Part shown: positions 2,767 to 42,633 of the stretch, piece after piece | Position numbering within the stretch: position 1 is the first letter of the stretch | How the letters are laid out: the number at the start of each line of letters is the position of its first letter | Source: an uncultured Candidatus Saccharibacteria bacterium | GTDB taxonomy: Bacteria; Patescibacteriota; Minisyncoccia; Phycocordibacterales; UBA12088 | Assembly: GCA_964409035.1 (NCBI GenBank) | Contig: CAYPBQ010000001.1 | Coordinates: 111,638 to 175,637, forward strand | Length of the DNA: 64,000 nucleotides | Reading direction: 5' to 3' | Position numbers and translations under genes: made by a program | The notes under the pieces: generated by a model | The model's database searches: none | What the model was told of the DNA's origin: nothing | Seen by the model: only the letters and a program-made list of their open reading frames with translations

Positions 2767-3171
2767 AAATATGAAGCTATTAATAATGAATAATCCAATA
2801 AAATCCTTACTCCCTATAACCGATAATCAGAAAGAACAGATACGACAAACACCGCATTTCTTTATGCGGTTTCTCTCGTCTACGCGTTAGTAGTTATGCG
2901 CATGACATCGACAGTATACGCCACAATATTGAAGCAACACAAAGATGCTACGTGTGCCAACAACGATCAAAATACAGTGTCAAATTAAAGGACAAACTAG
3001 ATTTTTTTGAGTTAGTATTAAAGCCATATTATGTGTGTCCTTAACAATTTTTTTGAAATATTCTGCGATAAAAGACACATGTTTATAGGACAATTTTTTT
3101 GACCTTTTTATCCAAAATATTCACCCCTTAAAGAAAGTGATACTCGTACGACTCTATGCTATATTAGCGAT

Positions 3172-5382
3172 ATGGATGAGAAAGTAATAGACTCAATCTT
3201 TTTAAAACCATACAACCCAGGCGATGTTGAGGAGGCCCTCTACAAGGATTGGGAGGCTTCTTCTTTTTTTAACCCTGATGTGTGCAAAGAGAGGGGTATT
3301 GCAAACCCAGCACTTAAGCCCTTTTCGATTGTACTTCCTCCCCCTAACGTAACCGGGACCCTCCACATGGGTCATGCTGCCATGCTTGCCACAGAAGATA
3401 TTTTAGTCAGGCATGCGCGTATGAGCGGTAGACCAACACTGTGGCTTCCGGGCACTGATTCAGCGGCAATCGCAACCCAAAGCAAGGTAGAGAAAGAAAT
3501 ACAAAAGAAGGAGGGTAAAAGCCGATACGACTTAGGGAGAGAAGAACTACTCAAGCGAGTCGGCGAATTTGCAGAGGAAAGCAAGGCGACAATTATTTCT
3601 CAGACTAAAAAAATGGGAAGCAGCCTTGATTGGTCTCGATATGCGTACACCATGGATGAATCACGCTACCGCGCCGTTATGGAAGCCTTTGTACGTATGT
3701 ATGAGGCGGGACTCATCTACCGTGGTCACCGTATTGTTAATTGGGACCCTAAGGGGCAAACGACTATTTCTGATGATGAGATTGTGTACATTGAAGAGAA
3801 AACTACGTTCTACCACTTTCAATATGGCCCATTTGTTATTGGCACCGCCCGCCCTGAAACTAAATTTGGCGACAAGTATGTGGTGATGCACCCAGATGAT
3901 GAGCGTTATAGCGCATACATCCACGGTCAAACAATTGAGGTTGAATGGATAAATGGTCCAATTACCGCAACCATTGTTAAAGACTCCTCTATTGATATGG
4001 CATTTGGTACTGGAGTGATGACTATTACCCCATGGCATAGCGCAATCGACTTTGACATTGCTGAACGATATCAACTTGAAAAGGAGCAGATAATTGATGA
4101 GCGCGGTAAACTCCTCCCTATCGCTGGAGAATGTGCAGGAATGAAAATAGCAGATGCGCGAGCGCGTGTTGTTGAGCTACTGCGCGCAAAGGGGTTAATC
4201 GTAAAAGAGGAGCCATATACCCACAACATAGCCACCGCAGAGCGCACTGGCGCGACCATTGAGCCTCAAATTAAGGAGCAGTGGTTTATTGATGTTGATA
4301 AGCAATTTACCATTCCCCACTCAACCATTGTTGGTATTCCAAGCGGATCACAGACCTCTCTCAAAACGCTAATGAAGCAGTGCGTTGAGAGTAAAGAAAT
4401 AAGCATTCTCCCCGACCGATTTGAAAAAGTCTATTTTAACTGGATAGATAATTTACGCCCATGGTGCATATCACGGCAAATATGGTTTGGACACCGCATC
4501 CCCGTTTGGTACAAGGGTAGCGAGACGTATGTAGGAGTTGAGGCGCCAACCGATGATGGATGGGAGCAAGATCCAGACACCCTTGATACATGGTTTTCTT
4601 CAGGACTATGGACGTTTTCTACCCTTGGGTGGCCTGATAAAACAACTGACCTAGCTACATACCACCCCACCAGCGTACTTGAAACCGGTTACGACATTCT
4701 CTTCTTCTGGGTAGCGCGTATGGTACTCATGAGCACGTTCCACCTCGGGGAGGTACCGTTTAAGACGGTATATCTCCACGGCTTAGTGCGTGATGCAAAA
4801 GGTCAAAAAATGAGTAAATCTCTTGGAAATATTATTGATCCAGTAGAACTAATAGAGAAGTATGGCGCTGATGCAGTACGGCTTTCACTCATTATTGGCG
4901 CAGCGGCAGGTAATGACACAAAGCTTTCTGAAGATAAGGTGCGTGGCTACAAGTATTTTGCTAATAAGCTATGGAATGTGGCGAGGTTTATTTTTGAGAA
5001 TACGCAGGATACTAGCATAGATGAGCAAGCCACCCTCTCTACTCTTGATGCAGAGTACCTACACACCTTTACTGAGCTTGCTAAGGAGATTGAGAGCGAT
5101 ATAGAAAACTTTAGGCTATATTTAGCTGCTGAAAAGTTATACCACTACTCTTGGGACACTCTCGCATCGCAGATACTTGAAGAGAGTAAAAAGCTATTCA
5201 CAGAAGGTGACAAAGCGCTTGTGGCATCTAGAAAGCAATTGTTGCTTGTCATCATTCGTGACTTGTTAAAGTTACTCCACCCGTTTGCTCCTTTTGTTAC
5301 AGAAAAAATTTGGCAGCATTCACCGTTTAAGCAACCATCTCGCCCATTTATCATGGTTGAGACCTGGCCTGTTCACAACTAA
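3172..5382 (+). CDS. valS: Valine--tRNA ligase
   Basis: 736 aa. Class I HIGH motif (LHMGHAAM) and KMSKS (KMSKSLGN). Editing-domain and anticodon-binding regions are typical of ValRS. It is short because the C-terminal coiled-coil is missing. Confidence 0.93.
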   Translation: MDEKVIDSIFLKPYNPGDVEEALYKDWEASSFFNPDVCKERGIANPALKPFSIVLPPPNVTGTLHMGHAAMLATEDILVRHARMSGRPTLWLPGTDSAAIATQSKVEKEIQKKEGKSRYDLGREELLKRVGEFAEESKATIISQTKKMGSSLDWSRYAYTMDESRYRAVMEAFVRMYEAGLIYRGHRIVNWDPKGQTTISDDEIVYIEEKTTFYHFQYGPFVIGTARPETKFGDKYVVMHPDDERYSAYIHGQTIEVEWINGPITATIVKDSSIDMAFGTGVMTITPWHSAIDFDIAERYQLEKEQIIDERGKLLPIAGECAGMKIADARARVVELLRAKGLIVKEEPYTHNIATAERTGATIEPQIKEQWFIDVDKQFTIPHSTIVGIPSGSQTSLKTLMKQCVESKEISILPDRFEKVYFNWIDNLRPWCISRQIWFGHRIPVWYKGSETYVGVEAPTDDGWEQDPDTLDTWFSSGLWTFSTLGWPDKTTDLATYHPTSVLETGYDILFFWVARMVLMSTFHLGEVPFKTVYLHGLVRDAKGQKMSKSLGNIIDPVELIEKYGADAVRLSLIIGAAAGNDTKLSEDKVRGYKYFANKLWNVARFIFENTQDTSIDEQATLSTLDAEYLHTFTELAKEIESDIENFRLYLAAEKLYHYSWDTLASQILEESKKLFTEGDKALVASRKQLLLVIIRDLLKLLHPFAPFVTEKIWQHSPFKQPSRPFIMVETWPVHN

Positions 5383-5391
5383 TAGCAATTC

Positions 5392-6150
5392 TTGCGCTAT
5401 ACTTTATACATGGAGCTAGCCGCTACGTGGCTTTCTGTTATTGGCGCATCACCCGCTGGGGCTTACTCCTATGCCTTTATAGGAGGTATAGTACCCGCAC
5501 TCCTTTGGCTACTGTTTTTTTTGCGTGAAGACAGACTCCATCCTGAACCACGCAAGTTGCTTATCTTTACCTTTATTGCAGGTATGTCATGTGTCATCTT
5601 TGTACTTCCTGTACAGCGATTTGCCTATGGGTTTTTGACTGGTGGCTCTCTATTGCTCGCGTGGGCGTTTATTGAGGAGCTATTCAAGTACTGGGCAGCA
5701 TATCTTGTGGTGTTGTGGCAATCGGCAGTTGATGAACCGATGGATCCTGTTATCTATATGATTACTGCAGCCCTAGGTTTTGCCGCTCTTGAAAACGCAC
5801 TGTTTATGTCTGGGCCTCTACTAAGCGGTAATCCTACTGAGGCACTTATTACAGGTAATCTTCGCTTTATTGGAGCAGCACTTCTTCATGTGGTTGCGTC
5901 AGCATCCATTGGTATGGCACTTGCGCTTTCATTTTATCGAAAGAGCAAATATAAACGATTGTATTTTTTAACCGGCTTTATCCTTTCTGTCTTATTGCAT
6001 ACGATATTTAACTTTTTTATAATGGAGAGTAACGGAGGAGAGGTACTTATCGTCTTTTCTTTTGTCTGGATTGGTGTCATTCTATTACTACTCCTCTTTG
6101 AGAGAATAAAGCTTATCAAAAAACCATTACCCACAAGCATCTTTAAATAA
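5392..6150 (+). CDS. PrsW-family intramembrane metalloprotease-like membrane protein
   Basis: 252 aa with multiple TM segments. EExxK-like motif (FIEELFKY) and HxxxN-like motif (LLHTIFNFF), as in PrsW/CPBP-type proteases. Confidence 0.45.
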   Translation: MRYTLYMELAATWLSVIGASPAGAYSYAFIGGIVPALLWLLFFLREDRLHPEPRKLLIFTFIAGMSCVIFVLPVQRFAYGFLTGGSLLLAWAFIEELFKYWAAYLVVLWQSAVDEPMDPVIYMITAALGFAALENALFMSGPLLSGNPTEALITGNLRFIGAALLHVVASASIGMALALSFYRKSKYKRLYFLTGFILSVLLHTIFNFFIMESNGGEVLIVFSFVWIGVILLLLLFERIKLIKKPLPTSIFK

Positions 6151-6156
6151 CATATT

Positions 6157-6657
6157 ATGGCAAGAGATAAACGATCATTTTTTGAACGACTAACTGGCAC
6201 CGTGAGTACGGATGAATATGAAGAATTTGGAGATGACTTTGTTCCGCAACAAACCGCTGTCACAACAGCAAAAAAGGCACGAGTAGTACCTACAGAAGAG
6301 CCCGTATATGAAGAACCAGAACCTGAAGAAGAAGGTCAATTATCTGTAGATGTGTATCAAACTCCAACCGACATTGTCATTAAAGCAGTTGTTGCTGGTG
6401 TAAAGCCTGATGAGCTAGATGTCGCAATTACAAGGGACATGGTTACCATCAGAGGAGAACGACAAGAGGTAAAGGAAGCAACTGATGAAAACTATTTCCA
6501 CCAGGAGCTTTACTGGGGTAGATTCTCACGAACCATTCTTCTCCCCGCAGAAATTGAGGTAGAAGCAGCGGAGGCGCAGGAAAAGCACGGCGTACTCGTT
6601 ATTCGACTTCCAAAAATTGATAAGGACCGTCAAACAAAGTTAAAGGTAAAGAGCTAA
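6157..6657 (+). CDS. Hsp20/alpha-crystallin family small heat shock protein
   Basis: 166 aa. The alpha-crystallin domain pattern (LSVDVYQT...DIVIKAVVAGVKPDELDVAI...VTIRGER...GRFSRTILLPAEIEVEAAEAQEKHGVLVIRLPK) and size fit the Hsp20/alpha-crystallin family. It sits 6 bp after the preceding gene, so it is probably co-transcribed. Confidence 0.85.
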   Translation: MARDKRSFFERLTGTVSTDEYEEFGDDFVPQQTAVTTAKKARVVPTEEPVYEEPEPEEEGQLSVDVYQTPTDIVIKAVVAGVKPDELDVAITRDMVTIRGERQEVKEATDENYFHQELYWGRFSRTILLPAEIEVEAAEAQEKHGVLVIRLPKIDKDRQTKLKVKS

Positions 6658-8611: not shown

Positions 8612-9022
8612 TTACTTGAACCAACCAAGTATTTTTTCAAAAAACCCTTTTTCCTTCTCTTTGTTTGCATCAAGTGGTACTCGCTCTTCTTTCTCTACTA
8701 CAACAATTGCATACTCCCCCTCCCTTCCAACATCAAATTGCTTCCTGAGTTCTTCCTCCTTGCCTTTATCAGTTTCTAGGTATGCAATTCGCTCCCTCAA
8801 TTGAGCCTCACGCACTTGGAGCGCGCCAAGTTCAGCGGCAACTTCCATTCTTTTATCCTTTGCTATCGATGCTTTGTCCCATGCATTGTACGCAACATTA
8901 GCTAAGAATAGTGTAATGAGAAGTATCACTACCACCATAGGCTTAGAGTGCAATATCCTACGGAGCTTTCTTCTCTCATAAAAGGTAAACATATTATAAG
9001 TATACCAAAACTTGCGATACAT
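8612..9022 (-). CDS. Septum formation initiator (FtsB/DivIC-like) coiled-coil membrane protein
   Basis: A single TM helix (VVVILLITLFLANVAY) is followed by a coiled coil and the FtsB-like EEELRKQFDVGREGEY motif. The true start is probably an internal Met (MFTFY or MVVVILL). Confidence 0.5.
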   Translation of the reverse strand: MYRKFWYTYNMFTFYERRKLRRILHSKPMVVVILLITLFLANVAYNAWDKASIAKDKRMEVAAELGALQVREAQLRERIAYLETDKGKEEELRKQFDVGREGEYAIVVVEKEERVPLDANKEKEKGFFEKILGWFK

Positions 9023-9227
9023 CGATAAATTGAGTACCCTAATAGCACTATGCTATTTCATAAAAAAACAAAAAAGGCCATTAAATGGATTTGGGCGGGT
9101 TTGGTGATACTTATTATCTTCTCAATGGTGATTCTCTATATACCGCTTGGTTAAGAGTAGAGGTATAGACAATCAAAATAATTTGTTGTACAAAGCTATT
9201 TAGCTGGTACCAGATGGGAGCACGTCA

Positions 9228-9744: not shown

Positions 9745-11538
9745 CTAATCCCCTTTCATTATTTTCATAAACACATCCTGTGAGAGGTGCACCTTGCCTC
9801 GTTCAAGCATTTTTTTCTTTCCTCGCTTTTGTTTTTCACGTAGCTTCATCTTTCTAGTGATGTCACCACCATATAGGTGCCCCGTCACATCCTTTTTCAT
9901 AGCTGCAATACGCTCCGCAGCGATAATGCGTCCAAAGGCCTTTGCCTGTATTTTTGTCACAAACATTTGCTTAGGGAGTGAGTCCCTCAGCCTCTCTACA
10001 ATTTTAGTCGCCTCTTCTTCCACTCTTCTGAGGGATACCACTCGAGAAAACGCCGGGACAAGCTCTTCAGCAATAAGAACATCAAGACGAGTTACCTCAG
10101 CCTTTCGTGATCCGCCAAATTCATACGATACCGATGCATAGCCAGAGCTAATACTCTTTAACTTATCAAAAAAGTTTCTCATCATCTCTCTAAGTGGCAT
10201 GGTCACTGCCATAATGGTTCTTCCATCAGAAAATGCTTCCGAGTTACTAAGCTCTGCCTCATGATCGTAGAGCATCTGCATCACAGGCCCCACATACTCT
10301 GGTGGTGTAATTATCTTTACATCTACCCACGGCTCCATAACACCCTTATACATGCCATGGTCAGGAAATTTTGAGGGGTTATAAATGGTCTCTATCTTTC
10401 CATTTGATAACTCAACCTCATACACGATACTTGGCAGCGTTACAATCAGCTCAAGTGAAAACTCACGTCTCAAACGCTCGGTTATAATTTCAAGGTGTAG
10501 CATACCCAAAAATCCACACCTAAATCCCCGCCCCAATACACCAGATGTTTCTTCTTCGTAGGTAAGTGATGAATCTGAAAGACGTAGCCTATCAAGCGCC
10601 TGCTTGAGGGCAGAAAAGTCGTCTTGGCTCTCTGGGTACACACTGGCCCAGACAACAGGCCTTGGTGTTTTATACCCCGCAAGCGCTGTTACCGGCTGCT
10701 TAGAAAGCGCGATAGTATCTCCCACAGTAGCTACCCCAGGTTGTTTTATACCAGTTACCACATAGCCAATTTCACCCCCACTAAGGCTATCGACTGGTTT
10801 CTCCTCAGGAACAAATACCCCAACCTCTATCGCAATAAAGGATTCATTAGCGTTCATGAAAGTGAGGTAGTCACCCTTTTTTATCGCCCCATCAAAGAGG
10901 CGCATATACACAATTACCCCTCTATGATTTGAATATTGAAAATCAAATACAAGCGCACTAGTCGTAGTGGCGCCAGTCTCCCTTGGTGGTGGAATCCTTT
11001 CAATGATGGCATCTAGAAGCGTTGCAACACCTTCACCGGTCTTGCCTGAGGTAAGAAGTACATCATCCACATCAACATTAAACTTCAGCGCCATCTCTTC
11101 TCTAAGCTCTTTGGTGCGTGCCGTTGGAGCATCAATTTTTGAGAGCACAGGAATAACCACAAGCCCCTGCTCCTCTGCCATACCAAGGGTTGTGAGCGTT
11201 TGTGCTTGTATCCCCTGTGTCGCGTCAACAAGTAGTATCACTCCCTCTACCGCCTTGAGTGCGCGTGATACCTCATATGAAAAATCTATGTGCCCTGGTG
11301 TATCGATAAGATTAACTACGTATTCGACACCATCTTTCTTCCACACCATTCGAGCTGGCTGCATCTTTATAGTGATACCACGCTCACGCTCAAGCTCCAT
11401 AGAATCGAGTACTTGCTCTTTCATTTTTCTCTTTTCTATCGTGCCTGTTACCTCAAGGAGGCGGTCTGCGAGAGTAGATTTGCCGTGGTCTATGTGGGCA
11501 ATAATGCTAAAGTTGCGGATATGCTTCATGTAGCGCAA
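9745..11538 (-). CDS. lepA: Translation elongation factor 4 (LepA)
   Basis: 597 aa. N-terminal GTPase motifs IRNFSIIAHIDHGKSTLADRLL, DTPGHIDF and NKID. LepA-specific C-terminal domain. Confidence 0.93.
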   Translation of the reverse strand: MRYMKHIRNFSIIAHIDHGKSTLADRLLEVTGTIEKRKMKEQVLDSMELERERGITIKMQPARMVWKKDGVEYVVNLIDTPGHIDFSYEVSRALKAVEGVILLVDATQGIQAQTLTTLGMAEEQGLVVIPVLSKIDAPTARTKELREEMALKFNVDVDDVLLTSGKTGEGVATLLDAIIERIPPPRETGATTTSALVFDFQYSNHRGVIVYMRLFDGAIKKGDYLTFMNANESFIAIEVGVFVPEEKPVDSLSGGEIGYVVTGIKQPGVATVGDTIALSKQPVTALAGYKTPRPVVWASVYPESQDDFSALKQALDRLRLSDSSLTYEEETSGVLGRGFRCGFLGMLHLEIITERLRREFSLELIVTLPSIVYEVELSNGKIETIYNPSKFPDHGMYKGVMEPWVDVKIITPPEYVGPVMQMLYDHEAELSNSEAFSDGRTIMAVTMPLREMMRNFFDKLKSISSGYASVSYEFGGSRKAEVTRLDVLIAEELVPAFSRVVSLRRVEEEATKIVERLRDSLPKQMFVTKIQAKAFGRIIAAERIAAMKKDVTGHLYGGDITRKMKLREKQKRGKKKMLERGKVHLSQDVFMKIMKGD

Positions 11539-11608
11539 TTATGCCCTATTTTAGGCATTTATCAAGGTTAGTATTGACAAAAAATTTGCGTATGACAAGC
11601 TTTAACTT

Positions 11609-11838
11609 GAGGTGGAGGAGTTGACAACCTCCTGTCCGTTAGGGGACTGCGCCAAGAAATGCACATGCCCCCGTCTGGCAACACAGTTTGCTGGATAGCC
11701 TAGAGCCCAATGGGCTAGCAAAGACGGTGTGTCCGATGGTCTACTGACCCAAACGATCCGCTCCGAGCTAGAGCAGAGCTGAGCGGAGGACACCCACCTC
11801 ACTTTAACCCGCAGTCATCGACTGCGGGTTTGTCATTT
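11609..11838 (+). ncRNA. Candidate structured small RNA with intrinsic terminator (identity unknown; 6S-like closing stem)
   Basis: GC-rich ~230 nt between murJ and lepA. The 5' gaggtgg (11609-11615) pairs with ccacctc (11794-11800). Internal hairpins include aggag-uugacaac-cuccu, agccc-aat-gggct and ccgctc...gagcgg. It ends in a strong hairpin aacccgcagt-catcg-actgcgggtt followed by tgtcatttc. The T-tract is only on the + side, which gives the orientation. TTGACA is at 11574-11579 upstream. Confidence 0.35.
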
Positions 11839-11867
11839 CAAAATAATACTCAAAAATACTACAATTC

Positions 11868-13541
11868 TTACTCCATTTGCTCATCAGGCAACTGAGTTGG
11901 CCTTGCCGATAACTTATGATGAAGAGCGCCAATCACTTCCCTCACCTCAACATTTTTTAGTACATATAACACAGCAACATATGCAACAAGACCAAACAAT
12001 CCCGCGATTGCTCCTTGCAGTGATATACCGACAAACGTATTAATATCAACCACATCATCCATGAGGTTGAGACCGGTATAAGCAACTATTCCTGCACATA
12101 GTGAGGCAAAACCAGAATGAAGCACCACACGTGCAAGCACTCCAGAAAGTGGAGAAAAATCCTGACCAAAAAATACAAGTAGAAACATCGCATTAAATAG
12201 CATTCCAATGGTATATCCCAAAGGAAGCATAAGTACTTCTGTACCCGCAAGACCCTCTACCCTCAAAAGTGCTTCCATGAATAGTTGAAAGGGCTCATGG
12301 AGAGAAAAAACCGAAAGAAGCAATGTCGCACTTGAAAGACCTGCGATAGAAGAGACAGCATTAATAAGGAAAGGTTTAAGCGTATTACCTGCCGCATAGT
12401 ACGCCCGCACGACAACCAACATCACGCTATGCGCAAAAAGTGAAAGCGCAAAAAGCGCAAGACCTGCTGCAACAAGTCGAGTATCCGCCCAATCAAACTC
12501 CCCTGTTCCCAGCACTGTGCGCACCACCTGCGCTCGTAGCACAATAAGGAGCACCGTTGCAGGAAATGCCCAAAATACAATATGCCTAAGTGCGGTACCT
12601 ATGTGATGTACAAACGATTGCGTATCACCCGCACTAATAAATCGTGACAATATAGGAAATGCAGCGACAGAATAGCTCACCCCTATTATTGCAAGTGGTA
12701 CCGACTGGAGGTTAAACGCAAATGAGAACACTGCAATTGATCCAACCGTCATGTATGACGCTATAGATATAAATATAAACGATAGCATCTGCCCCACTGA
12801 AAGAGTGAGTGTTCGAGGTATCGACATCGAGAGTATCTTCCGAACCACGCTCCACTCGATTGAAAGCGTAAAGGTAGGAAATAGCTTGTGACTAACCATA
12901 AACGGCAGTTGAATTGCCAAGTGAAGAGTAGCTCCAATGGCAACACCTAGTGCTAATCCTGCAATACCAAGCAATGGGTACAAAAAGAGTACACCAAAAA
13001 TTATACCGATATTGTATAGAATTGGTGATATGCCGTAGAGTAAAAACTTTTGGTACACCTGAGTGACAGAAGCACAAAGATTAGACACGCCAAGTATAAT
13101 TGGTTGTACTAATAGTATGCGTATAAGCAAGGTCAAATCTCCATGAAGCGCTTCCTCAAAGCCCGGAAATAGTAACGGTACTAATGCCGGCGCAAGGACA
13201 AATACCACCGCGCTTGTACCAGCAATAAGTATGAGAAAAAAACTATATAAACTTGAGAGCAATTCTCGTACTTTCTCTGTAGAAATAAGTAATCGCTCAG
13301 AAAGAAATGGAATAAGCACATACACCGACACCAATGAACCAAGTAATACATACAAGAGATCAGGTATACGAAATGCCGCGTAATAGAGATCAAGGGTCAC
13401 ACCTGCACCAAATTCATGAGCGAGTATTCTATCTCGAAGGAGGGCAAGTACTTGTGAAGTAAGGGTAAATATACCCAAAAGGTACGCAGCCTCGTGGAGA
13501 CCGCGTACCTCTCGGTATAAAAATCCAAACACCTTAGACAT
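11868..13541 (-). CDS. murJ: Lipid II flippase MurJ (MviN family)
   Basis: 557 aa with about 14 TM helices. Family-typical N-terminal region (LLGIFTLTSQVLALLRDRILAHEFGAG...DLYYAAFRIPDLL) and size. Confidence 0.7.
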   Translation of the reverse strand: MSKVFGFLYREVRGLHEAAYLLGIFTLTSQVLALLRDRILAHEFGAGVTLDLYYAAFRIPDLLYVLLGSLVSVYVLIPFLSERLLISTEKVRELLSSLYSFFLILIAGTSAVVFVLAPALVPLLFPGFEEALHGDLTLLIRILLVQPIILGVSNLCASVTQVYQKFLLYGISPILYNIGIIFGVLFLYPLLGIAGLALGVAIGATLHLAIQLPFMVSHKLFPTFTLSIEWSVVRKILSMSIPRTLTLSVGQMLSFIFISIASYMTVGSIAVFSFAFNLQSVPLAIIGVSYSVAAFPILSRFISAGDTQSFVHHIGTALRHIVFWAFPATVLLIVLRAQVVRTVLGTGEFDWADTRLVAAGLALFALSLFAHSVMLVVVRAYYAAGNTLKPFLINAVSSIAGLSSATLLLSVFSLHEPFQLFMEALLRVEGLAGTEVLMLPLGYTIGMLFNAMFLLVFFGQDFSPLSGVLARVVLHSGFASLCAGIVAYTGLNLMDDVVDINTFVGISLQGAIAGLFGLVAYVAVLYVLKNVEVREVIGALHHKLSARPTQLPDEQME

Positions 13542-13556
13542 GAGTACAGTATACTC

Positions 13557-15974
13557 CTATTCAAGCACTTCTGTACTTGTTGACGACTCTTCACTTACCG
13601 GGAGTGAATCGAGAGACTCAACAGATGATGACGTGTTCTCAGAAACTGGAGGAAGTCCGTTTTCAAGATTTTCAAGAACACTCTCAATCTCAGCATTATC
13701 CGGATTAAGTGTTTGTACCTTCTTGAACTGTTCAATCGCACTGTCGATATCACCCCTCTCGTACTCAGAAAGACCAAGGAAGTAAAGTGCGTTTGAGTAA
13801 TCTGGATTAAGCGCTATCGCTCTTGAGAATGATGATGACGCACCCTCATACTGTTTGTCTGAGTACTTGAGTAGTCCAAGCTGGAAGAAATTAACAGCAT
13901 TTGTTGGTTCTATGATAGTAGTTGCTTCGACACTCTTTATCGCCTCTTCGGTCTCTCCTTCGTTTATCTGAATTTGCGCCAAGAGGAATATTGCTTCTGT
14001 ATAGTTATTCTTCTTTTCTAGGGCGAGCTGAATCTTTTCTTTTGCAGTCTCATTGTTACCATTTGCACTTTCTAGCTGCGCAAGACCCAAGAAGATTGCT
14101 GGTGATTGTGGGTTAAACTCTAGCGCACGTGCATAGGCTTGTGTTGCCCCATCATACGCACCTTCAACCTTAAGAGGTACTACTGTTTGATATACCTGTG
14201 CGAGATTTATCCAGTTTTGATAGTTTGTTGGATCAAGGACAGTGGCACGCTGTGCGTTTTGGATAGCAGCAGCAAGTACCGCTTGGAATTGTGTTCGAGC
14301 CTCCTCTTCAGAAAGTGTTTCTGATTGAGCAACCTCGCTAAGTCTAATGAGATTAAGATTGGTACCAAATCGATAGTACGCATCTACCTCATTAAGAGTC
14401 ACCGCTTGTGACACTAATGCCTCGGCTTTCTCAATGTCATTTTCTACATTGAGAGCTACCACTCCCTTTTGAAAGTACATTGCGCTTGCATATCGCTCAC
14501 CGATTGCAAATATTGAAGCGATGCTTCCAAGAAACAGCAAGGTGAGGAAAAGCACTGAGATAAAGCCAAGACGAGGGTTTTCTACAAAAGAAATTTCCTT
14601 TTCTGAAAAACCTCCCGGCTGACGTCTGATAGATGCAATAAATACTCCAGTGAGCAAAAAGGCGAAGAACAGAATGCTGTGACTAGGTGTATAAATGATT
14701 GCAAATATCCACAAGAAGAGTGCCCCAAGGTATGACGAGAGCGATAGGTACGAAGAAAGTGGGTCAGCGTTTGCTCGCATTACCAGCGCTCTAAAGCCTG
14801 CGTATAAGAATAATCCAATGAAGAGAATCCATGATATCGCACCAACAGCACCAGTGGTTGCAAGTGAAGTCGGAATGTAGCCAATACCGCTAGCAAAATC
14901 TGCAGACCAAAATAGTGTTTGATTGATTTCAACAGGCTTATTGAGTAGCCACTCTCTCGAGAAGGAGCCAGGACCAGAGCCAAATATCGCATGCTTTGCA
15001 TACGTACTCTGAATCACATCGGCAGTACTTTGCCAGGATGGACGCACCTCAAGCTGTGAGACATTAAAGAATGTAGATACGCTGTTACCGATAAAATTAC
15101 CTCCAACAAGAAATACAAGACATAATGACAGCACCAAGAGCGAAGCAAACGATGTTTGCCCTTCTCCCACAAGCTCACGCATTTGTGATTCACTCTCAAG
15201 TGAATCAGTGGTAGCTCTCTCGCGAGAGTATCGTCCGGTGGTTAAACTGTAGACAAAGGTACCAAGTGCAAATGCACCAATCACCCACCATACTACGCTA
15301 AAGTTGATTACAATAAGCATTGCAATAGATACTGCAAGCGCCCCGACAACGACAAGCTTTATTTTTCCATGAAGCGTAAGTCCAACAAGAGTTACGAGTG
15401 ACAGCACAGTAACCAATCCAAAGAATATTGCGAGATCATTCCAAGAACCAAGCACGTTTGCAGTGGTACTCGTAAAAATGCCGAAAGAAAGAAAATTTGG
15501 TCCAAAAAACAATCTTGCGATTTGAAATACAGCAACTATCCCAACTGACGCCATAAAAGCGCCGTATAGCTTTAGAAGACTCTCTCTTTTTCTAAGTCCA
15601 ATCGCAACAAGTGTTGCAATAAGTGTAAGTACTCCAACAAACGCAAAAGAGTCTGTGTTAAAGCCTTGACCAAGAAGTGATTGCTCTATGTTTCCTGAGA
15701 ATAATGAAGAAACAAGATACGCAATAGGAATCATCCACATCGCACCCATAAGTGGACTCATAGGAATGAGTATTCTGCGCTCTTTCATTCTTGCCACTAT
15801 GTAGAATGCGACACCGAGTAACGCTACTATTGCGATAAAAAACGCCTTAGTAAACTGAAACGGGGCAAACAAAAGAGGAATAAATACGATAGGAACAAGA
15901 GCGGTAGCCCCAATGAGAAGCCACTCAAGCATCCCATCAAATCCTGCGCGTGATTTCTGCGGAAGATATGCCAT
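13557..15974 (-). CDS. O-antigen ligase/polymerase-like membrane domain fused to C-terminal TPR repeats
   Basis: 805 aa. The N-terminal ~450 aa is polytopic membrane (Wzy_C-like). The C-terminal ~300 aa has TPR-like repeats (AYYRFGTNLN..., AQVYQTV..., GLAQLESANGN..., YFLGLSEYERGDIDSAIEQFKKV) and ends in an acidic Ser/Glu-rich tail. Confidence 0.5.
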   Translation of the reverse strand: MAYLPQKSRAGFDGMLEWLLIGATALVPIVFIPLLFAPFQFTKAFFIAIVALLGVAFYIVARMKERRILIPMSPLMGAMWMIPIAYLVSSLFSGNIEQSLLGQGFNTDSFAFVGVLTLIATLVAIGLRKRESLLKLYGAFMASVGIVAVFQIARLFFGPNFLSFGIFTSTTANVLGSWNDLAIFFGLVTVLSLVTLVGLTLHGKIKLVVVGALAVSIAMLIVINFSVVWWVIGAFALGTFVYSLTTGRYSRERATTDSLESESQMRELVGEGQTSFASLLVLSLCLVFLVGGNFIGNSVSTFFNVSQLEVRPSWQSTADVIQSTYAKHAIFGSGPGSFSREWLLNKPVEINQTLFWSADFASGIGYIPTSLATTGAVGAISWILFIGLFLYAGFRALVMRANADPLSSYLSLSSYLGALFLWIFAIIYTPSHSILFFAFLLTGVFIASIRRQPGGFSEKEISFVENPRLGFISVLFLTLLFLGSIASIFAIGERYASAMYFQKGVVALNVENDIEKAEALVSQAVTLNEVDAYYRFGTNLNLIRLSEVAQSETLSEEEARTQFQAVLAAAIQNAQRATVLDPTNYQNWINLAQVYQTVVPLKVEGAYDGATQAYARALEFNPQSPAIFLGLAQLESANGNNETAKEKIQLALEKKNNYTEAIFLLAQIQINEGETEEAIKSVEATTIIEPTNAVNFFQLGLLKYSDKQYEGASSSFSRAIALNPDYSNALYFLGLSEYERGDIDSAIEQFKKVQTLNPDNAEIESVLENLENGLPPVSENTSSSVESLDSLPVSEESSTSTEVLE

Positions 15975-16164: not shown

Positions 16165-16590
16165 TATCTCGATATCTGTGCCTATAAGCCGAATTCTGTC
16201 TATCCCTATAGATGAGTACTATATGGGAGATAGTTATGTATCTAGGAGTGTTGTTACCAACACCCTCAAGCGGCTCTCCCCACCCATCTTAATCTTTATC
16301 TATATATAGAAGACTAAGATGGATGGGGCACGGCCTTGCACGCAGGTAGGAATTTTGCCGTTTCAGCCTTGCCTCACAACAAGGTTTTCTGCATATTGCA
16401 TACGCTATATGCAGACCGCATTTCTCTCAAAATAGCGCGTCTCTGTTCGCATCCCGTGGGTCACCCCAGGCGGGCGTTACCCGCTACCATTCTCCAGCTT
16501 TCACTGAGCGTGTTCGGACTTTCCTCTCTTTGTATACTTGCGTAACAAAGAGCAACTATCCAGCACAGACCTTTTATATTATACAACACT
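16165..16590 (-). ncRNA. rnpB: RNase P RNA (bacterial type A-like)
   Basis: The minus strand carries GGAAAGUCCGAACACGCUCAGUGAAAGCUGGAGAAUGGUAGCGGGUAACGCCCGCCUGGGGUGACCCACGGGAUGCGAACAGAGACGCG, matching the P4/P5-P7 consensus of bacterial RNase P RNA. Near the 3' end (16180-16200) it carries GACAGAAUUCGGCUUAUAGG, the P4 3' strand consensus ACAGAAnCCGGCUUA. The P3 hairpin is cucuuugu...acaaagag. There is an AU-rich insertion. The ends are approximate. The + ORFs 16118..16309 and 16336..16545 are artefacts. Confidence 0.8.
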
Positions 16591-17750: not shown

Positions 17751-17954
17751 TCATTTTTTCTTTTTCTTTTTCTTTCTTGAAGCCTCTATTGAAGGCCAGT
17801 TCATAGATTGGGGACCCTCTCCCTCAACCATGCTAGTAAGAGACCTCACTCTACCGAATCTTGCAAGGTTAATAGATATATCGAGTCTCTCTCTTACCTC
17901 ATCAAAATTCGGAGGTAATAACGACACCGGATCGAGTACATCGCGAAAAGTCAT
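17751..17954 (-). CDS. Small hypothetical protein (67 aa) ending in a heptalysine tail
   Basis: Strong SD GGGAGG 8 nt upstream of the ATG (cttcttGGGAGGtgtgttATG). The intrinsic terminator is 25 nt downstream. C-terminus reads ...EASRKKKKKKK, encoded by aagaaagaaaaagaaaaagaaaaaa. Confidence 0.55.
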   Translation of the reverse strand: MTFRDVLDPVSLLPPNFDEVRERLDISINLARFGRVRSLTSMVEGEGPQSMNWPSIEASRKKKKKKK

Positions 17955-18041
17955 AACACACCTCCCAAGAAGCTGTTACCGCATTATGTGTACCACACCA
18001 TGCTCCATTTTAGCAATACTTTATGGTATAACAGCGTGACT

Positions 18042-18128
18042 GGAGGGTTCGCATAGTGGTCGAGTGCGCCGCCTTGGAAAGGCGGTATTGGGGAAACCCA
18101 ATCGAGGGTTCGAATCCCTCACCCTCCG
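18042..18128 (+). tRNA. tRNA-Ser (anticodon GGA)
   Basis: ggagggt-tc-gcat-agtggtcga-gtgc-g-ccgcc-ttGGAaa-ggcgg-[long variable arm tattggggaaacccaatc]-gaggg-ttcgaat-ccctc-accctcc-g. The long variable arm is typical of Ser. CCA is not encoded. Confidence 0.88.
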
Positions 18129-18560
18129 CAATTTTGAACGTAGTAAAAAAGTGCGGAGGGTGAGAAAGGTACCTTCGTACCTTTCGTAGGGATTCGAAGC
18201 GCCGGAGTATATTGCGAAGCAATACGAGGCGCCGTCCTAGGAATGCGAGGTTTTTGTGAGCTGCAAGGCGAAACAAAACCCGCAATTCAGGGGACAATCC
18301 CTCACCCTCCGCAAAACAAGGAGAACAATGCGAAGTATTGGGCGACTATGTTTTGAGAGAGTGGTGAGGGATTCGCACCACAAGAGTATTTCCATGTTAC
18401 TAATTCGCCTTGCTCATAAGTAACATTGGTCAACGCCGGAGGCGGTCTACGATTTTACGAAACGAAGTGTAGTAAAATTGTCGCCGAGGCGCGACCAGCG
18501 TGCTTAGCCCGTAGGGCTTAGCAAAAGCGGGTCGAATCCCTCACCGCTCTAAGGATTTAA
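18129..18560. repeat. Degenerate direct and inverted copies of the tRNA-Ser T-arm/acceptor 3' segment in a 520-bp non-coding stretch
   Basis: Direct copy caatccctcaccctccgca at 18295-18313 against tRNA 18111-18130. Direct copy gggtcgaatccctcaccgctct at 18529-18550. Inverted copy gcggagggtgag at 18153-18164 forms a 12-bp hairpin with the tRNA 3' end. Inverted copy ggtgagggattcg at 18363-18375. Confidence 0.6.
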
Positions 18561-18648
18561 TATTGGAAATAGATAGAGGTATTACACAAAGATGCGCTGC
18601 AAACGCCATCATTTTAATAGATTGTTAGTTGGGTGGTAGGATAAAAAT

Positions 18649-19071
18649 ATGTCGAAACAAATTTATATTAATTTAATTACCAAAGATCTCGCCAAGTCCT
18701 CTGCTTTTTATAGAGCTATAGGGTTTATAAAGAATGAAGTGTTTTCAAATTCCGATGCTGAGTCATTTATGTATAGCGATGATATTGTCTTTATGATACT
18801 CACTGAGGAATTTGCAAAAAACTTCAATGACGGCAAGACCTTCCCAGATCAGAAGAAAACTGTCAGTGCACTCTATGCCCTAAGCTGTGCTTCAAAGGAG
18901 GAAGTAGACAACATGTGCGCTGCCGCAAAATCAGCAGGAGGTAGAGTCTATGAAAATGAATACAATAAAAAGGTAGCGGGCGACTTTATGTACTCTTTTG
19001 AAATCGAAGATCCAGATGGGTATATCCTCGAGCCAGTATTTATGGATATGACCAAATTCTCACAAGGGTAA
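18649..19071 (+). CDS. VOC (glyoxalase/bleomycin-resistance) family protein
   Basis: 140 aa. The N-terminal beta-alpha-beta pattern (YINLITKDLAKSSAFYRAIGF) and C-terminal FEIEDPDGYILEP are typical of VOC proteins. Confidence 0.6.
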   Translation: MSKQIYINLITKDLAKSSAFYRAIGFIKNEVFSNSDAESFMYSDDIVFMILTEEFAKNFNDGKTFPDQKKTVSALYALSCASKEEVDNMCAAAKSAGGRVYENEYNKKVAGDFMYSFEIEDPDGYILEPVFMDMTKFSQG

Positions 19072-19123
19072 ACCTGGGGTTAGTTACTATAACTAACATA
19101 GATTCTATTTTTAGTAGAAATGT

Positions 19124-19558
19124 ATGTCCTACACCAACAAAACACAGCCGACAAAAACTAGCCCTGAGAAGTATTTGAAGGAAAACTTTAAGGGAAAAGA
19201 AAAAGTGCAAAGCGAGGCACTGGCTTTAGTTGATCTGTATACAAAAGTCACTGGCTCCCCGTGTGTGATGTGGAACAAAATTTTTGGCTTTGGGAAATAT
19301 CATTATTTAGATAGCAAAGGCGGCGAACATACCCACCTTATAACTGGCTTTGCTATTTCTTCAACCGGCTTCACCCTCTACAACATGATAGGCTGGGAGA
19401 CTTATAAAAAAGAAATTGAAAAACTTGGTAAATACAAGCTCTCGGGTAAATCTTGTCTTGCAATAAAGAGCATAGAAGATATTGATCTGAAGGTGCTAAA
19501 AGCGGTTGCAAAAAGCTCATTTGTCTTGATGAAGAAACGCTATAGAACTGAAAAGTAA
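19124..19558 (+). CDS. DUF1801 (YdhG-like) domain protein
   Basis: 144 aa. VMWNKIFGFGKYHYLDSKGGEHTHLITGFAISSTGFTLY matches the YdhG/DUF1801 core (GFGSYHYKY...GF...LTLY). Confidence 0.6.
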   Translation: MSYTNKTQPTKTSPEKYLKENFKGKEKVQSEALALVDLYTKVTGSPCVMWNKIFGFGKYHYLDSKGGEHTHLITGFAISSTGFTLYNMIGWETYKKEIEKLGKYKLSGKSCLAIKSIEDIDLKVLKAVAKSSFVLMKKRYRTEK

Positions 19559-19569
19559 TTTGATACCAC

Positions 19570-20010
19570 ATGACCATGAACCAAAAAGCACATACAGTAA
19601 AAAAAGTATTTAGTAGAGAAACAGCAGTATCTATTTTGATCAACGCTACCCCAGAAAAAATTTGGCAGATACTGGTAGATGTTGGTAATTATAAAAACTG
19701 GAATAGTACTATTCTTTCAATAGAGGGAGAGATAAAGGCTGGCGGAGAAATTAAAATCGTTCCATCAATAAACCCAAATAGAACTTTTAAGCTAAAGATA
19801 AAAGCATTTGAGCCGTATACAAAAATGGTTTCAGGAGATGCGATGGGTAGCCGAACCTTTTTACTTGAAAAAGTTGAAGGCGGAACCCTGTTTACCATGA
19901 CAGAAAAAATTGGCGGGCTGCTTTTTCCGTTATTTGCAAACATGATACCCCCGTTTGACGACGCCTTCGATGCCTATGCAAGAGATTTAAAAGTAGTCAG
20001 CGAGAAGTAG
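19570..20010 (+). CDS. SRPBCC (polyketide cyclase/START-like) family protein
   Basis: 146 aa. The N-terminal pattern VSILINATPEKIWQILVDVGNYKNWNS is typical of SRPBCC ligand-binding domains. Confidence 0.55.
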   Translation: MTMNQKAHTVKKVFSRETAVSILINATPEKIWQILVDVGNYKNWNSTILSIEGEIKAGGEIKIVPSINPNRTFKLKIKAFEPYTKMVSGDAMGSRTFLLEKVEGGTLFTMTEKIGGLLFPLFANMIPPFDDAFDAYARDLKVVSEK

Positions 20011-20044
20011 GTCTCAATTTTATAAAATAATTAACTAAAGAACT

Positions 20045-20236
20045 ATGAAGACTCTAAAATGTGATTTGTGTGAAGCAACGGCGGAAGGCGCAACATTTGA
20101 AGAATGGATGAGTGCTCTTATGCCACATTATATGCAAGCTCATGCCGATGTCATGAACGACCCAAAAATGACCAAAGAAGACCAGCAGAAGTGGATGGCT
20201 GAAAACAAAGCAAGGTTTGAAGCGGTAATATTGTAA
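20045..20236 (+). CDS. Hypothetical small CxxC protein
   Basis: 63 aa. It begins MKTLKCDLCEAT, packs well into a helical sequence, and has reasonable codon usage. Confidence 0.4.
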   Translation: MKTLKCDLCEATAEGATFEEWMSALMPHYMQAHADVMNDPKMTKEDQQKWMAENKARFEAVIL

Positions 20237-20333
20237 GCAAAATGTATGACAAACAACAAAACACGATCTTAATCGTGTTTTGTTGTCTCATATCCCTGAA
20301 TACACTTTGAATACCCTCTTACTTCAGAGCTTT

Positions 20334-21089
20334 TTATTTTTGTGTATCCGCAAAATGTATCATTGCGTCCTGCATAAATTGTGCGAGTCCACTAGCAACA
20401 TTCTCATAATTTGCCTTAAAGCGTTCGTCTGCAACATACATATGTGCTAAACCGCGATATATTTCAACATTTGGTTCGTAAAACGCACGAAGACCATCGT
20501 AGTGCTTAGCAATTAGCGTTTGAACTTTCGCACTTGTTGGATCGAGCCCAGCTTTCATTGTCTCTGCAATCTCTACCGTAAGCATACCTGACTCCTCCAT
20601 TACCTTTTTCAAACCGTCTTTTCCCATTTTCTTTACGCGCACTTGTGACTCCTTGAATGCCTTTGTATTGCCCCACTTCTGCCGCGCCTCTTCGGTGTAG
20701 GTATCCATCTCCTCTTTGGAGAAGTTTCCATATAATTCTTTGTCATCCATAGTAATCTCTTTGTTAATTTTTTTAATTGTTTTATCAATTGTCTTAACTA
20801 ATTTGCTCAGACGATTCTTTTTAAGCTCAATCAATTTTTTCTGATCGCGAAGCGTTTCTCTCATATCAAATGATTGGGAGGACAGAATTTGTTTTATTTC
20901 TTCAAGAGAAAAATCAAGCTCTCTAAAGAATAGAATCTGTTGGAGCTTCAGAAGCTCTCTTTCCTCATAATATCTATAACCATTATTTTCAACTCGAGAC
21001 GGCTTTAAAAGCCCCACTTTGTCATAATGGTGAAGTGTCCGGACACTTATTCCGGCAATGATTGCTAGTTTTTTTATGGTATACGACAT
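20334..21089 (-). CDS. MerR family transcriptional regulator with TipAS-like C-terminal effector domain
   Basis: MerR HTH (YTIKKLAIIAGISVRTLHHYDKVGLLKP...NGYRYY) and coiled-coil linker. The C-terminal domain resembles TipAS/Mta (KWGNTKAFKESQ...HYDGLRAFYEP...ERFKANYE). The start is at MSYTIKK (21089) rather than the ORF's first ATG (21134). Confidence 0.75.
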   Translation of the reverse strand: MSYTIKKLAIIAGISVRTLHHYDKVGLLKPSRVENNGYRYYEERELLKLQQILFFRELDFSLEEIKQILSSQSFDMRETLRDQKKLIELKKNRLSKLVKTIDKTIKKINKEITMDDKELYGNFSKEEMDTYTEEARQKWGNTKAFKESQVRVKKMGKDGLKKVMEESGMLTVEIAETMKAGLDPTSAKVQTLIAKHYDGLRAFYEPNVEIYRGLAHMYVADERFKANYENVASGLAQFMQDAMIHFADTQK

Positions 21090-21259
21090 ACAAATTACAA
21101 CCACCCTATTTTCGGTGTCGACCCACCATACCACAGTCTAAACTATGACGTTACGTTATAGTCAAGGTCATGATGATATGCCGTACTGAGATATGCCCAG
21201 CCGTTTATAAAGTGTGTAGTTTGCAAGCAATAGCAACAGTGAGAGTGCCGTGTGCACAT

Positions 21260-21670
21260 TTACTCGTGAGCAATTTTTTTCAATACCCCCTTTCTTTTTA
21301 CAATATTTTTATAATCCCACTGTATCTCTTTTGCCTTCTTCAACCACCTTTTTACACTTGTGATCTTAATCTCCTTAACGTCTGTATACACCACCTCTGC
21401 GGCTTTGAATTTTCCACTCGGCACTAAATCCTTTTCATCAAAACTTTGACCGCTGAAAAATAGCAAAGAAACATTCTTACCCTTTCGCACAGAGTATGCA
21501 ACAACAGGATTGCCTTCTATAAACCACACTGGGCTTCCATGCCAGATTTTTGACTCACTCTTCTTCACGTTCTTTTGTATTAACGCATCCAAAAATACAC
21601 AAATATCATTCACCTGTTTTGTGTGTAGGGTGTTGTATTCCGGTATGGTAGTGGCAGTCGTTTTTTGCAT
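21260..21670 (-). CDS. DUF1801-like domain protein
   Basis: 136 aa. WHGSPVWFIEGNPVVAYSVRKGKNVSLLFFSG resembles the second DUF1801/YdeI-type family. Confidence 0.45.
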   Translation of the reverse strand: MQKTTATTIPEYNTLHTKQVNDICVFLDALIQKNVKKSESKIWHGSPVWFIEGNPVVAYSVRKGKNVSLLFFSGQSFDEKDLVPSGKFKAAEVVYTDVKEIKITSVKRWLKKAKEIQWDYKNIVKRKGVLKKIAHE

Positions 21671-21682
21671 ATTGTAGCTATA

Positions 21683-22114
21683 TTACCCCTTGTGTGTTGG
21701 GTCAAAATCTATCATCCATTCAATTCCATATTTGTCACGAAGCATACCAAAGTACGTACCCCAGGGGCTCTCACTCATTGGAAATTCAACACTTCCACCC
21801 GCGGATAACCCGTTGAATAATGCATCAGCCTCTTCTCTACTTTCTACGCTAATAGCAATTTTTGATCTATGTTCATTTTCATTTGTCCTCCCCATACTCT
21901 CTGGCACGTCGTTACCCATTAAAAAGCTTTTACCAATTGGTAAAGCGATGTGCATTATTTTGTTTGCCTCATTCTCTGCCACCTGAAATTCAGCGCTTGC
22001 AAGATCTTTGAAGCGCATAATCTTTGCAAACTCTCCACCAAATACCGACTTATAAAAAGTGAAAGCCTCTTCTGCATTTCCATTAAAGTTTATATGCGGA
22101 TGTATTGTTGTCAT
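21683..22114 (-). CDS. VOC family protein (PhnB-like)
   Basis: Start at MTTIHPHINFNGNAEEAFTFYKSVFGGEF (22114). PhnB/VOC-like pattern FYKSVFGG...MHIALPIG...GIEWMI. Confidence 0.6.
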   Translation of the reverse strand: MTTIHPHINFNGNAEEAFTFYKSVFGGEFAKIMRFKDLASAEFQVAENEANKIMHIALPIGKSFLMGNDVPESMGRTNENEHRSKIAISVESREEADALFNGLSAGGSVEFPMSESPWGTYFGMLRDKYGIEWMIDFDPTHKG

Positions 22115-22287
22115 ACTTATTTTTATCGATAATAGCACTATTGTAGTATTTTTGATGCACAATTGCGATTTACCATGCTTGAAAGGATGAGAATTTTCTT
22201 AAATACCTACATTGCTTGTTTATCCGTAAAGCTTGCCTCCCAGAAGGCTGTCATTGTCTTATCTTGAATAAAAAACTATTTGACGCA

Positions 22288-41836: not shown

Positions 41837-42218
41837 GGGGATGATTGGCCTCGACAGTGAGTATGTGTTGCATAGTGTGCGAGTTCGTGTGAGGTGACAC
41901 GGTAAAAACACCTCAACCAATACGTGCTACAAAACTTCGCACGGCAATTCTTTCACCTTTCCAGATGAAGGACTTTGCACTCGCTGTAGCCTAAGGCTCG
42001 CGACATCCTACAGGGCGTTGTCTGATAGCCTTGTAACGGTGTAATACCATCAGAACCGCAAGTAGAACGACGTCACTCTGCTTGCTAAATAATGACGCTA
42101 TACGGTGTTGGCTTTTGACGAATTTTCTATCAACACCACGAACCAACAAATTCGCCAAGACTTCGTAGACTCACTATGCACTCCTCTCTGGATGCGGGTT
42201 CGATTCCCGCCATCTCCA
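41837..42218 (+). ncRNA. ssrA: tmRNA (SsrA)
   Basis: The 5' GGGGAUGAUUGGCCUCGACAG... acceptor strand pairs with the 3' ...GCGGGUUCGAUUCCCGCCAUCUCCA (T-arm plus acceptor). The internal tag frame ends ...FQMKDFALAVA-UAA. It lies immediately downstream of smpB and is followed by a terminator hairpin at 42231-42255. Confidence 0.85.
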
Positions 42219-42259
42219 CAATTACAAAAACCTTCCCGCTTTCGCGGGAGTTTTTGTTT

Positions 42260-42433
42260 GTGGAGTGGAGCGAGAGAACTTCTTCTCTCGCGTCGGGAAT
42301 CGAAAGGCGCAGCGATGTTTTGTCCGCGTCCAAGCGGACAAAACCGCGAGCCTAGACGAAGCGCGCTTACTATCTTTTTGAGCGCAGCGATAGAAAGTAG
42401 TTAGCGACGCATCGTCGATCCGCCATCTCCACA
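42260..42433 (+). repeat. tmRNA-3'-end-associated structured module, copy 1
   Basis: It begins GTGGAGTGGAG, then the hairpin cgagagaacttcttctctcg, then GTCGGGAATCGAAAGGCGCAG. It contains an 11-bp hairpin gttttgtccgc-gtccaa-gcggacaaaac. It ends CGATCCGCCATCTCCACA, a degenerate copy of the tmRNA 3' end. The module ends can pair with each other. Confidence 0.6.
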
Positions 42434-42474
42434 AATTAAAACAATACCGCCCTTTGGCGGTTTTTGTTTTTACT

Positions 42475-42633
42475 GTGGAGTGGAAGACGATGCCTTCGCA
42501 TCGTCTGTCGGGAATCGAACGGCGGAGCGTTATACGTACGACTAAAAGGAGTGCGTATCGCGAGCCGCGTCCAACAACACTTAACGAATGCAATGAGTTT
42601 AGTGATTGTGGGACGATTCCCGCCATCTCCACG
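42475..42633 (+). repeat. tmRNA-3'-end-associated structured module, copy 2
   Basis: It is preceded by the terminator ccgcc-cttt-ggcgg-TTTTTGTTTTT. It begins GTGGAGTGGAAG, then the hairpin agacgatgc-cttc-gcatcgtct, then GTCGGGAATCGAACGGCGGAG. It ends GGGACGATTCCCGCCATCTCCACG. Confidence 0.6.

Follow-up and report, generated by a model that had tools for sequence, protein, structure and literature searches.

Since the late 1970s, RtT has stood as an unexplained peculiarity of a single Escherichia coli tRNA operon. The RtT repeats reportedly go back to work by Egan and Landy (1978), and the RtT RNA to that of Bösl and Kersten (1991). Here, we compare the RtT arrangement with that of a non-coding tract that follows the tRNA-Ser(GGA) gene in a 64-kb stretch of DNA from an uncultured Candidatus Saccharibacteria bacterium (contig CAYPBQ010000001.1, positions 111,638 to 175,637; hereafter, the window), and with that of similar units behind the transfer-messenger RNA (tmRNA; ssrA) gene of the same window. 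Each 178-bp period of the E. coli tyrT-tyrV repeat comprises, in this order, a spacer, GGGGAAGGAT, ~100 nt of core and ATCCTTCCCCCACCACCA. The annotated RttR begins 7 nt past tyrV, its 3′ end coinciding exactly with the CCA of the direct copy, and in the Rfam consensus for RtT (RF00391) the inverted copy pairs with the direct copy while the acceptor tail stays unpaired. In Actinobacillus, Northern signals have been obtained for RtT-family RNAs beside tRNA genes (PMC4986893), RtT copies have been inserted or replaced between Erwinia strains (PMC7542023), and the function of RtT is stated to be unknown (PMC7542023; bioRxiv 10.1101/2024.07.17.603846). Within the literature available to our search, no described tRNA-trailer family beyond RtT was found.

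The tract behind tRNA-Ser(GGA) probably consists of two tandem, RtT-like structured units that trail the tRNA, which we call units A and B (Table 1). A first-pass annotation, made from the DNA letters alone, had described a 520-nt non-coding tract carrying two direct and two inverted copies of the tRNA 3′ half. ARAGORN and Rfam both identify the tRNA gene, and the tract contains only short overlapping open reading frames (ORFs) of at most 95 amino acids, in agreement with that description; no gene is called within the tract in matching contigs. Taking as reference the tRNA-Ser 3′ end including two flanking nucleotides (18113–18131), a repeat finder returned AATCCCTCACCCTCCGCAA as an exact 19-nt repeat at this position and at 18296–18314, a spacing of 183. 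Both direct copies are thus present as described, although the first lies one nucleotide from where it had been placed (18295–18313) and the second is identical to the tRNA only over CGAATCCCTCACC, 13 nt at 18533–18545. The two inverted copies are also present and extend further than first drawn. The first, at 18152–18164, is complementary at 13 of 13 positions to 18301–18313 and also pairs with the tRNA end at 18118–18135 (18-nt arms, 94% complementary). The second, taken as 18363–18379, is 94% complementary to tRNA positions 18107–18123; taken as 18358–18375, it pairs with 18533–18550 at 17 of 18 positions (94%) with 157 nt between the arms, which agrees with the pairing over about 160 nt proposed initially. 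When one mismatch is allowed, the 12-mer GAATCCCTCACC occurs four times in the window, every time at the tRNA-Ser locus; shuffled sequences contain 0.21 occurrences on average, and none of 100 shuffles reaches four.

These four copies are better read as two closed modules, in each of which a core is held between an inverted arm and a direct arm. The first inverted copy had been assigned to a terminator-like hairpin with the tRNA end. Although this hairpin can form, no run of T residues follows it and we therefore rejected a terminator role; the same inverted copy has an alternative, perfect partner (18301–18313) that closes unit A. Unit A, which like the tRNA gene lies on the + strand, begins 23 nt past the end of tRNA-Ser and consists of a 13-bp basal helix, then five further pairs past an inserted hairpin, then the core. 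Its predicted fold has an energy of −81.5 kcal/mol (z = −7.8 relative to shuffled sequences). Unit B, whose core contains an extra 5′ hairpin plus a CCGGAG...CGAGGCG motif recognized by eye, folds with −90.5 kcal/mol (z = −7.2 relative to shuffled sequences), and we place it in the family of unit A by its outer layout and by motifs read by eye. The tract as a whole folds with −199.6 kcal/mol on the + (tRNA) strand compared with −173.6 kcal/mol on the − strand. Because an inverted and a direct copy of the tRNA 3′ half together form the basal helix, each unit ends in the T-stem, acceptor-strand and discriminator sequence of the tRNA. We also considered unit A as a tRNA-like pseudogene and rejected this reading, as neither a T-arm nor a D-arm can be drawn.

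The units resemble RtT in layout. In both cases, tandem units follow immediately behind a tRNA gene and share its strand, with two units after tRNA-Ser in the window, and two adjacent units and one distal unit after the tmRNA. At the end of each unit, the final ~19 nt of the tRNA reappear as a direct copy (19 nt exact in unit A, 13 nt exact in unit B), and the unit is closed by a basal helix between the inverted and direct copies (13 of 13 positions in unit A, 17 of 18 in unit B). Copy number and placement vary between strains, as noted for RtT (PMC7542023). There are also differences. Neither in sequence nor by covariance model was any similarity to RtT detected, whichever of the two served as query. 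The core fold in the window is a three-way junction that has CCGGAG...CGAGGCG as an internal loop, an inserted hairpin lets the 5′ arm complement the acceptor strand as well, and the tRNA is a tRNA-Ser(GGA) with no encoded CCA. In addition, the host belongs to the Saccharibacteria, within the candidate phyla radiation, and the family also occurs behind the tmRNA gene. The design itself is known from RtT; the family defined here is absent from Rfam. An Rfam search of the tract, suggested by the first-pass annotation, returned neither RtT nor any other structured-RNA family, and at both gathering and permissive thresholds nothing emerged from the window, the tract and more than 20 related loci apart from tRNAs, tmRNA, RNase P and sub-threshold noise. 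Judged by the Rfam model, the tract falls outside RF00391. One metagenome locus, L123, has a sub-threshold RtT match (990–1126; 29 bits, with gathering at 45) behind one of two divergent tRNA genes, and relatives of RtT may reach beyond the curated Rfam family.

The three-way-junction structure covaries strongly. R1, a covariance model of this junction and its helices P1, P2 and P3, was built from six metagenome units beside other tRNAs and contains no window sequence; R2 is a broader covariance model. A search of the window with R1 gave four matches, all on the tRNA strand, which fall on unit A and on three units behind the tmRNA gene, the latter being the strongest model matches in the window (Table 1). 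R2 gives unit A 34.6 bits and an independent copy in the related locus L016 31 bits (E 1e-5). Across 42 aligned units, 91.3% of pair cells hold standard pairs compared with 72% after shuffling, 127 cells show two-sided compensatory changes compared with 37.8, and the covariation score is 0.376 compared with 0.116 for shuffled alignments and 0.05–0.07 when pairing partners are slid. Double changes occur at 16 of the 19 pairs of helices P1, P2 and P3. The same alignment contains 34 G.U and 9 A.C combinations, an excess that favors reading the units as single-stranded molecules of the tRNA-sense strand. The second of the two explanations offered initially, namely a structured RNA in which the acceptor sequence of the tRNA is used again, is much closer to this evidence, given the RtT architecture and the match of unit A to R1.

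The tRNA-Ser locus had also been likened to ssrA, and the parallel holds within the window itself, since its tmRNA gene carries three such units. The tRNA-like 3′ end of the tmRNA is copied in the units that follow, whose arms match the tmRNA T-loop (GGGAATCG / CGATTCCC). In unit 1, which folds with z = −7.1, the order is GTGGAGTGGA, an inserted hairpin, GGGAATCGAA, the core and the direct copy CGATCCGCCATCTCCACAA (42416–42434). Unit 3, which sits past a gene islet of ~4 kb, has a degenerate direct copy (46793–46812). In unit A and in all three tmRNA-linked units, the 5′-arm hairpin lies exactly at the junction of the acceptor complement with the T-stem complement (18165–18185, 42270–42291, 42485–42506 and 46649–46670); across loci, its stem is kept and its sequence varies. 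By Pfam annotation, the order in the window is tmRNA, unit, unit, GNAT, C39 peptidase, arginase-family protein, ThiF, unit and ECF sigma factor. Two other loci, L153 and L150, share one SmpB sequence that is 97% identical to that of the window, and their ssrA arrangements differ from the window and from each other. In L153, a single unit stands between the tmRNA and a different cargo (GNAT with a helicase block; 2275–6639), after which come another single unit and the sigma factor; in L150, the third unit is missing and the islet lies at 11416–14839. The islet genes in the window (42752–46175) form a candidate peptide-modification cluster, and in L153 the helicase-containing block takes the place of most of them.

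Table 1. Features of the tRNA-Ser and ssrA loci (positions in the window; R1 and R2, covariance models)
Feature	Position	Strand	Basis or remark
tRNA-Ser(GGA)	18042–18129 (Rfam end 18128)	+	ARAGORN; Rfam tRNA 58.2 bits
Spacer between tRNA-Ser and unit A	18130–18151	+	Sequence; contains TTGAACGTAGTAAAA
Unit A, 162 nt	18152–18313	+	Arms 13/13 complementary
Unit A 5′ arm, acceptor complement	18152–18164	+	
Unit A inserted 21-nt hairpin	18165–18185	+	
Unit A T-stem/T-loop complement AGGGATTCGAA	18188–18198	+	
Unit A three-way-junction core	18189–18301	+	R1 21.2 bits, E 0.004 over whole window, 4e-4 over 6.5 kb
Unit A 3′ arm, direct copy of tRNA end	18296–18314	+	
Spacer ("leader") between units A and B, 44 nt	18314–18357	+	93–95% identical to L006/L012
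Unit B, 193 nt	18358–18550	+	Arms 18 nt, 94% complementary, one U.G pair (+ strand)
Unit B 5′ arm	18358–18375	+	
Unit B 3′ arm	18533–18550	+	18533–18545 tRNA-identical
98-nt tail after unit B	18551–18648	+	Reaches first gene of variable islet
VOC/glyoxalase-family gene	18649–19071		First gene downstream of tract
tmRNA gene	41837–42221	+	ARAGORN; Rfam tmRNA 92 bits
tmRNA-linked unit 1	42260–42434	+	R1 23.9 bits, E 9e-4; R2 41.2 bits; at 42295–42423
Unit 1 acceptor complement GTGGAGTGGA	42260–42269	+	
tmRNA-linked unit 2	42475–42632	+	Layout as unit 1; R1 45.4 bits, E 7e-9; R2 57.2 bits; at 42510–42621
Unit 2 direct copy CGATTCCCGCCATCTCCAC	42614–42632	+	
tmRNA-linked unit 3	46639–46812	+	Past islet; R1 43.3 bits, E 2e-8; R2 50.1 bits; at 46674–46786

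The layout recurs widely. Metagenome contigs were scanned for a tRNA T-arm followed, 50–80 nt on, by its own inverted T-loop, and this arrangement was found at a minimum of 120 loci. Among the 122 matches listed, the tRNA is most often tRNA-Ser (50), followed by tRNA-Arg (18) and tRNA-Tyr (8), with others rarer; in about half, 14 nt or more of the tRNA 3′ end reappear in direct orientation 30–420 nt past the inverted copy, the units are often tandemly repeated, and the cores sort into a few recognizable sequence families. The inverted copy complements the acceptor strand of its own tRNA by at least 6 nt in 34 of these 122 matches, for which a rough estimate of the number expected by chance is ~4. 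The arms vary with the neighboring gene: behind tRNA-Ser they are GGGATTCG, and behind the tmRNA they are GGGAATCG. On the metagenome contig L053, units whose cores are nearly identical lie behind tRNA-Leu, tRNA-Arg and tRNA-Lys (2537–2733, 5668–5895 and 8868–9099), and the arms in each case match the T-loop of their own tRNA (TTCAAAT, TTCGAAT and TTCGACT).

Close relatives, defined as genomes in which the adjoining DUF1761 protein is 86–100% identical, differ in their complement of units. Whereas tRNA-Ser in the window is followed by the spacer, unit A, the leader and unit B, in L006 and L012 it is followed by the leader and an A-like unit, and in L016 by the spacer and unit A. Exactly one 183-bp period that is present in the window is missing from L006, L007, L009 and L012. 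In L006 and L012 (89%-related), the tRNA end runs directly into the sequence that in the window follows the next direct copy of the repeat. As the window and L006 differ by exactly one repeat period, an "empty site" exists, and the shorter junction that the first-pass annotation had proposed to look for in related genomes is found. The A-type core is 87–92% identical across relatives, with 86–89% identity of the DUF1761 protein between those genomes. In L006, both arms have diverged from the tRNA sequence and have kept their pairing with each other. Gene content past the tract is different in all three related genomes. A search for the exact two-block pattern from unit A recovered only an already known relative among genome contigs and nothing among viral contigs. 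Among more distant relatives identified by HtpX synteny, contigs either stop at tRNA-Ser(GGA) (L018, L022, L023) or contain the tRNA without a unit (L024). In many metagenome contigs, the sequence stops at or shortly past the 3′ end of tRNA-Ser or tmRNA (L008, L010, L011, L013, L018, L022, L023, L151, L152, L154 and L155), which fits assembly breaks caused by repeated units or strain variation.

If the tract consists of RtT-like units, how might they be made and what might they do? Because no terminator lies between tRNA-Ser and the units (we found no + strand terminator or promoter-like site within 18130–18648), the units would be co-transcribed with the tRNA. Since the basal helix of unit A, with its 13 bp plus five pairs, appears to imitate the 12-bp acceptor/T-arm stack of a tRNA, enzymes that process tRNA ends could potentially free each unit as a discrete RNA of ~180 nt. 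Such release would parallel that of the E. coli RtT RNA, which is freed from the tyrT transcript. By analogy, the freed RNA would perhaps be a regulator that mimics tRNA or a by-product. At the DNA level, the reiterated tRNA ends could serve as short homologies or secondary target sites, allowing recombination to gain, lose and swap units, such that variable gene islets would accumulate beyond and between them.

Several observations weigh against this interpretation. For this organism, both the co-transcription and the release of the units are inferences. At the tmRNA gene, as in many metagenome loci, there are terminator-like hairpins in front of the units, and read-through or a separate promoter would be needed to transcribe the units in these places. 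The match of unit A to the independent model R1 is modest (21 bits), and neither R1 nor R2 detects unit B. As R2 also does not detect E. coli RtT, and the Rfam RtT model has no match in 17900–18750 up to an E-value of 10 or in the whole window at its gathering score (45 bits), the link to RtT is one of architecture rather than of demonstrated homology. Some copies may be decaying, given the weak fold of the one in L006 (z = −1.8) and the loss of 6 nt from the 3′ arm of the one in L016. Finally, the pairing counts for the 42 aligned units are somewhat inflated because the alignment was fitted to the model structure.

A bolder version of the same idea is that the units are one part of a large, undescribed superfamily of tRNA- and tmRNA-trailing elements that extends from the candidate phyla radiation to the Proteobacteria, with RtT as one corner. 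Members would copy the 3′ half of the adjoining tRNA, spread between tRNA genes and serve as landing pads or boundaries for exchangeable islets, behaving like cassettes without a linked integrase. We regard this version as a speculation that is rather unlikely to be correct. The design is present in Saccharibacteria, which have minimal genomes, behind both a tRNA and the tmRNA gene, in addition to the metagenome loci described above, and if it is widespread, the ends of tRNA genes would have a general function tied to them. Such units would also matter in practice, as they would break metagenome assemblies at tRNA genes, mimic attachment (att) sites in programs that find genomic islands and mark hotspots of accessory-gene exchange.

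Could the repeats instead be reiterated att sites, as the first-pass annotation favored? According to this explanation, the direct copies are tRNA 3′ ends displaced by successive integrase insertions and the sequences between them are decayed elements. It would account for the extra segment, bounded by the 19-nt repeat, that distinguishes the window from L006 and L012, for the different genes past the tract in three related genomes and for the many metagenome contigs that break right at the tRNA end. It would also account for the two different ssrA cargos that lie between units, particularly since the right boundary of the L153 cargo restarts with CCACAA, the tmRNA 3′ end, plus a terminator. 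Like the attL and attR sites of genomic islands, the locus combines direct repeats of a tRNA 3′ end with presence/absence polymorphism and nearby accessory genes. However, no integrase is found in or next to the tRNA-Ser locus, among the genes past the tract in the three related genomes (Pfam annotation), or at the ssrA locus of the window, L153 or L150. Beside the units of 10 other metagenome loci, inspected by eye, the first ORFs encode unrelated housekeeping or accessory proteins and none is integrase-like. Moreover, the insert is a mere 183 bp, non-coding and structured, with 87–92% conservation and covarying helices, and scars explain neither the inverted copies nor the way in which these co-evolve with the direct copies through compensatory changes. 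The layout is found again behind many tRNAs from many taxa, and its E. coli counterpart gives rise to a processed RNA. Although the empty-site variant and the variable genes stand as parts of the original proposal, simple att-scar reiteration is not the best reading of this locus, and we consider it unlikely; the trailing structured units remain our preferred interpretation.

It is also conceivable, by analogy with integron attC sites and the attP site of CTX phage, that the units are folded recombination sites. In such a scheme, each hairpin would rebuild a double-stranded copy of the T-arm, which a recombinase supplied in trans would recombine with the tRNA or tmRNA gene, and the arrangement would represent a cassette array in which some cassettes are empty. 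As in attC and CTX attP, imperfect inverted repeats surround a variable center, structure is far better conserved than sequence, and arrays of tandem units lie beside small accessory genes that resemble typical cassette cargo. In addition, the arms reproduce the T-loop and T-stem of the presumed target, and it is a complete unit, not a bare direct repeat, that follows the ssrA cargo. In contrast to these known sites, the arms copy a tRNA gene and are without attC core motifs, and neither an integron-type integrase nor Xer dependence is shown for the units. No dedicated recombinase is linked to the units among the neighboring genes or in the ssrA islet, and the seven genes beyond unit B (18649–22162) have no repeat unit between or after them. 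An RNA would account equally well for the excess of G.U pairs and the constant orientation relative to the tRNA, the counterpart in E. coli is known to be an RNA, and the proposal rests purely on analogy. We therefore view folded recombination sites as quite improbable and trailing RNA units as the better account.

Least probable of all, and very improbable in our view, is that the units are non-functional palindromic DNA or a selfish repeat resembling a miniature inverted-repeat transposable element with tRNA-like terminal inverted repeats: the 13–18-nt terminal inverted arms, the length of 160–190 bp, the absence of coding capacity and the degraded appearance of some copies would fit, whereas copies occur only behind tRNA or tmRNA genes, on one strand, with none dispersed in the window, the arms are locus-specific and match the adjoining gene, the tRNA end is the only target-site duplication present, and strong covariation of the internal helices extends across phyla.

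Among other RNAs that borrow from tRNA, the units share with tmRNA and the Y-RNA-like YrlA an acceptor/T-stem-like helix joined to a domain that is not tRNA-like. They differ from these RNAs in having no mimic of a T-loop or D-arm and no match in Rfam, and in copying the adjacent gene rather than a generic tRNA fold.

The surroundings of the tract contain several further features. Between the last direct copy and the gene at 18649 lie 98 nt, close to the ~100 bp first estimated, and the genes beyond unit B encode VOC, SRPBCC, MerR, DUF1801 and similar domains (Pfam annotation). Within the spacer that precedes unit A, TTGAACGTAGTAAAA (18134–18148) is a degenerate form of GTGAACGAAGTGAAC. In several loci of the candidate phyla radiation, namely L022 (7609–7626), L040, L048, L109 and L115, the latter sequence likewise stands between the end of the tRNA and the inverted arm. 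A type A bacterial RNase P RNA with several large insertions (137 bits) is encoded 1.5 kb upstream of tRNA-Ser on the − strand (16169–16571). Just upstream of tRNA-Ser, also on the − strand, lies a 67-amino-acid ORF that has a terminal run of seven lysines (17751–17954), and a gene of 66–71 amino acids is called at the matching position in the relatives L006 and L016.

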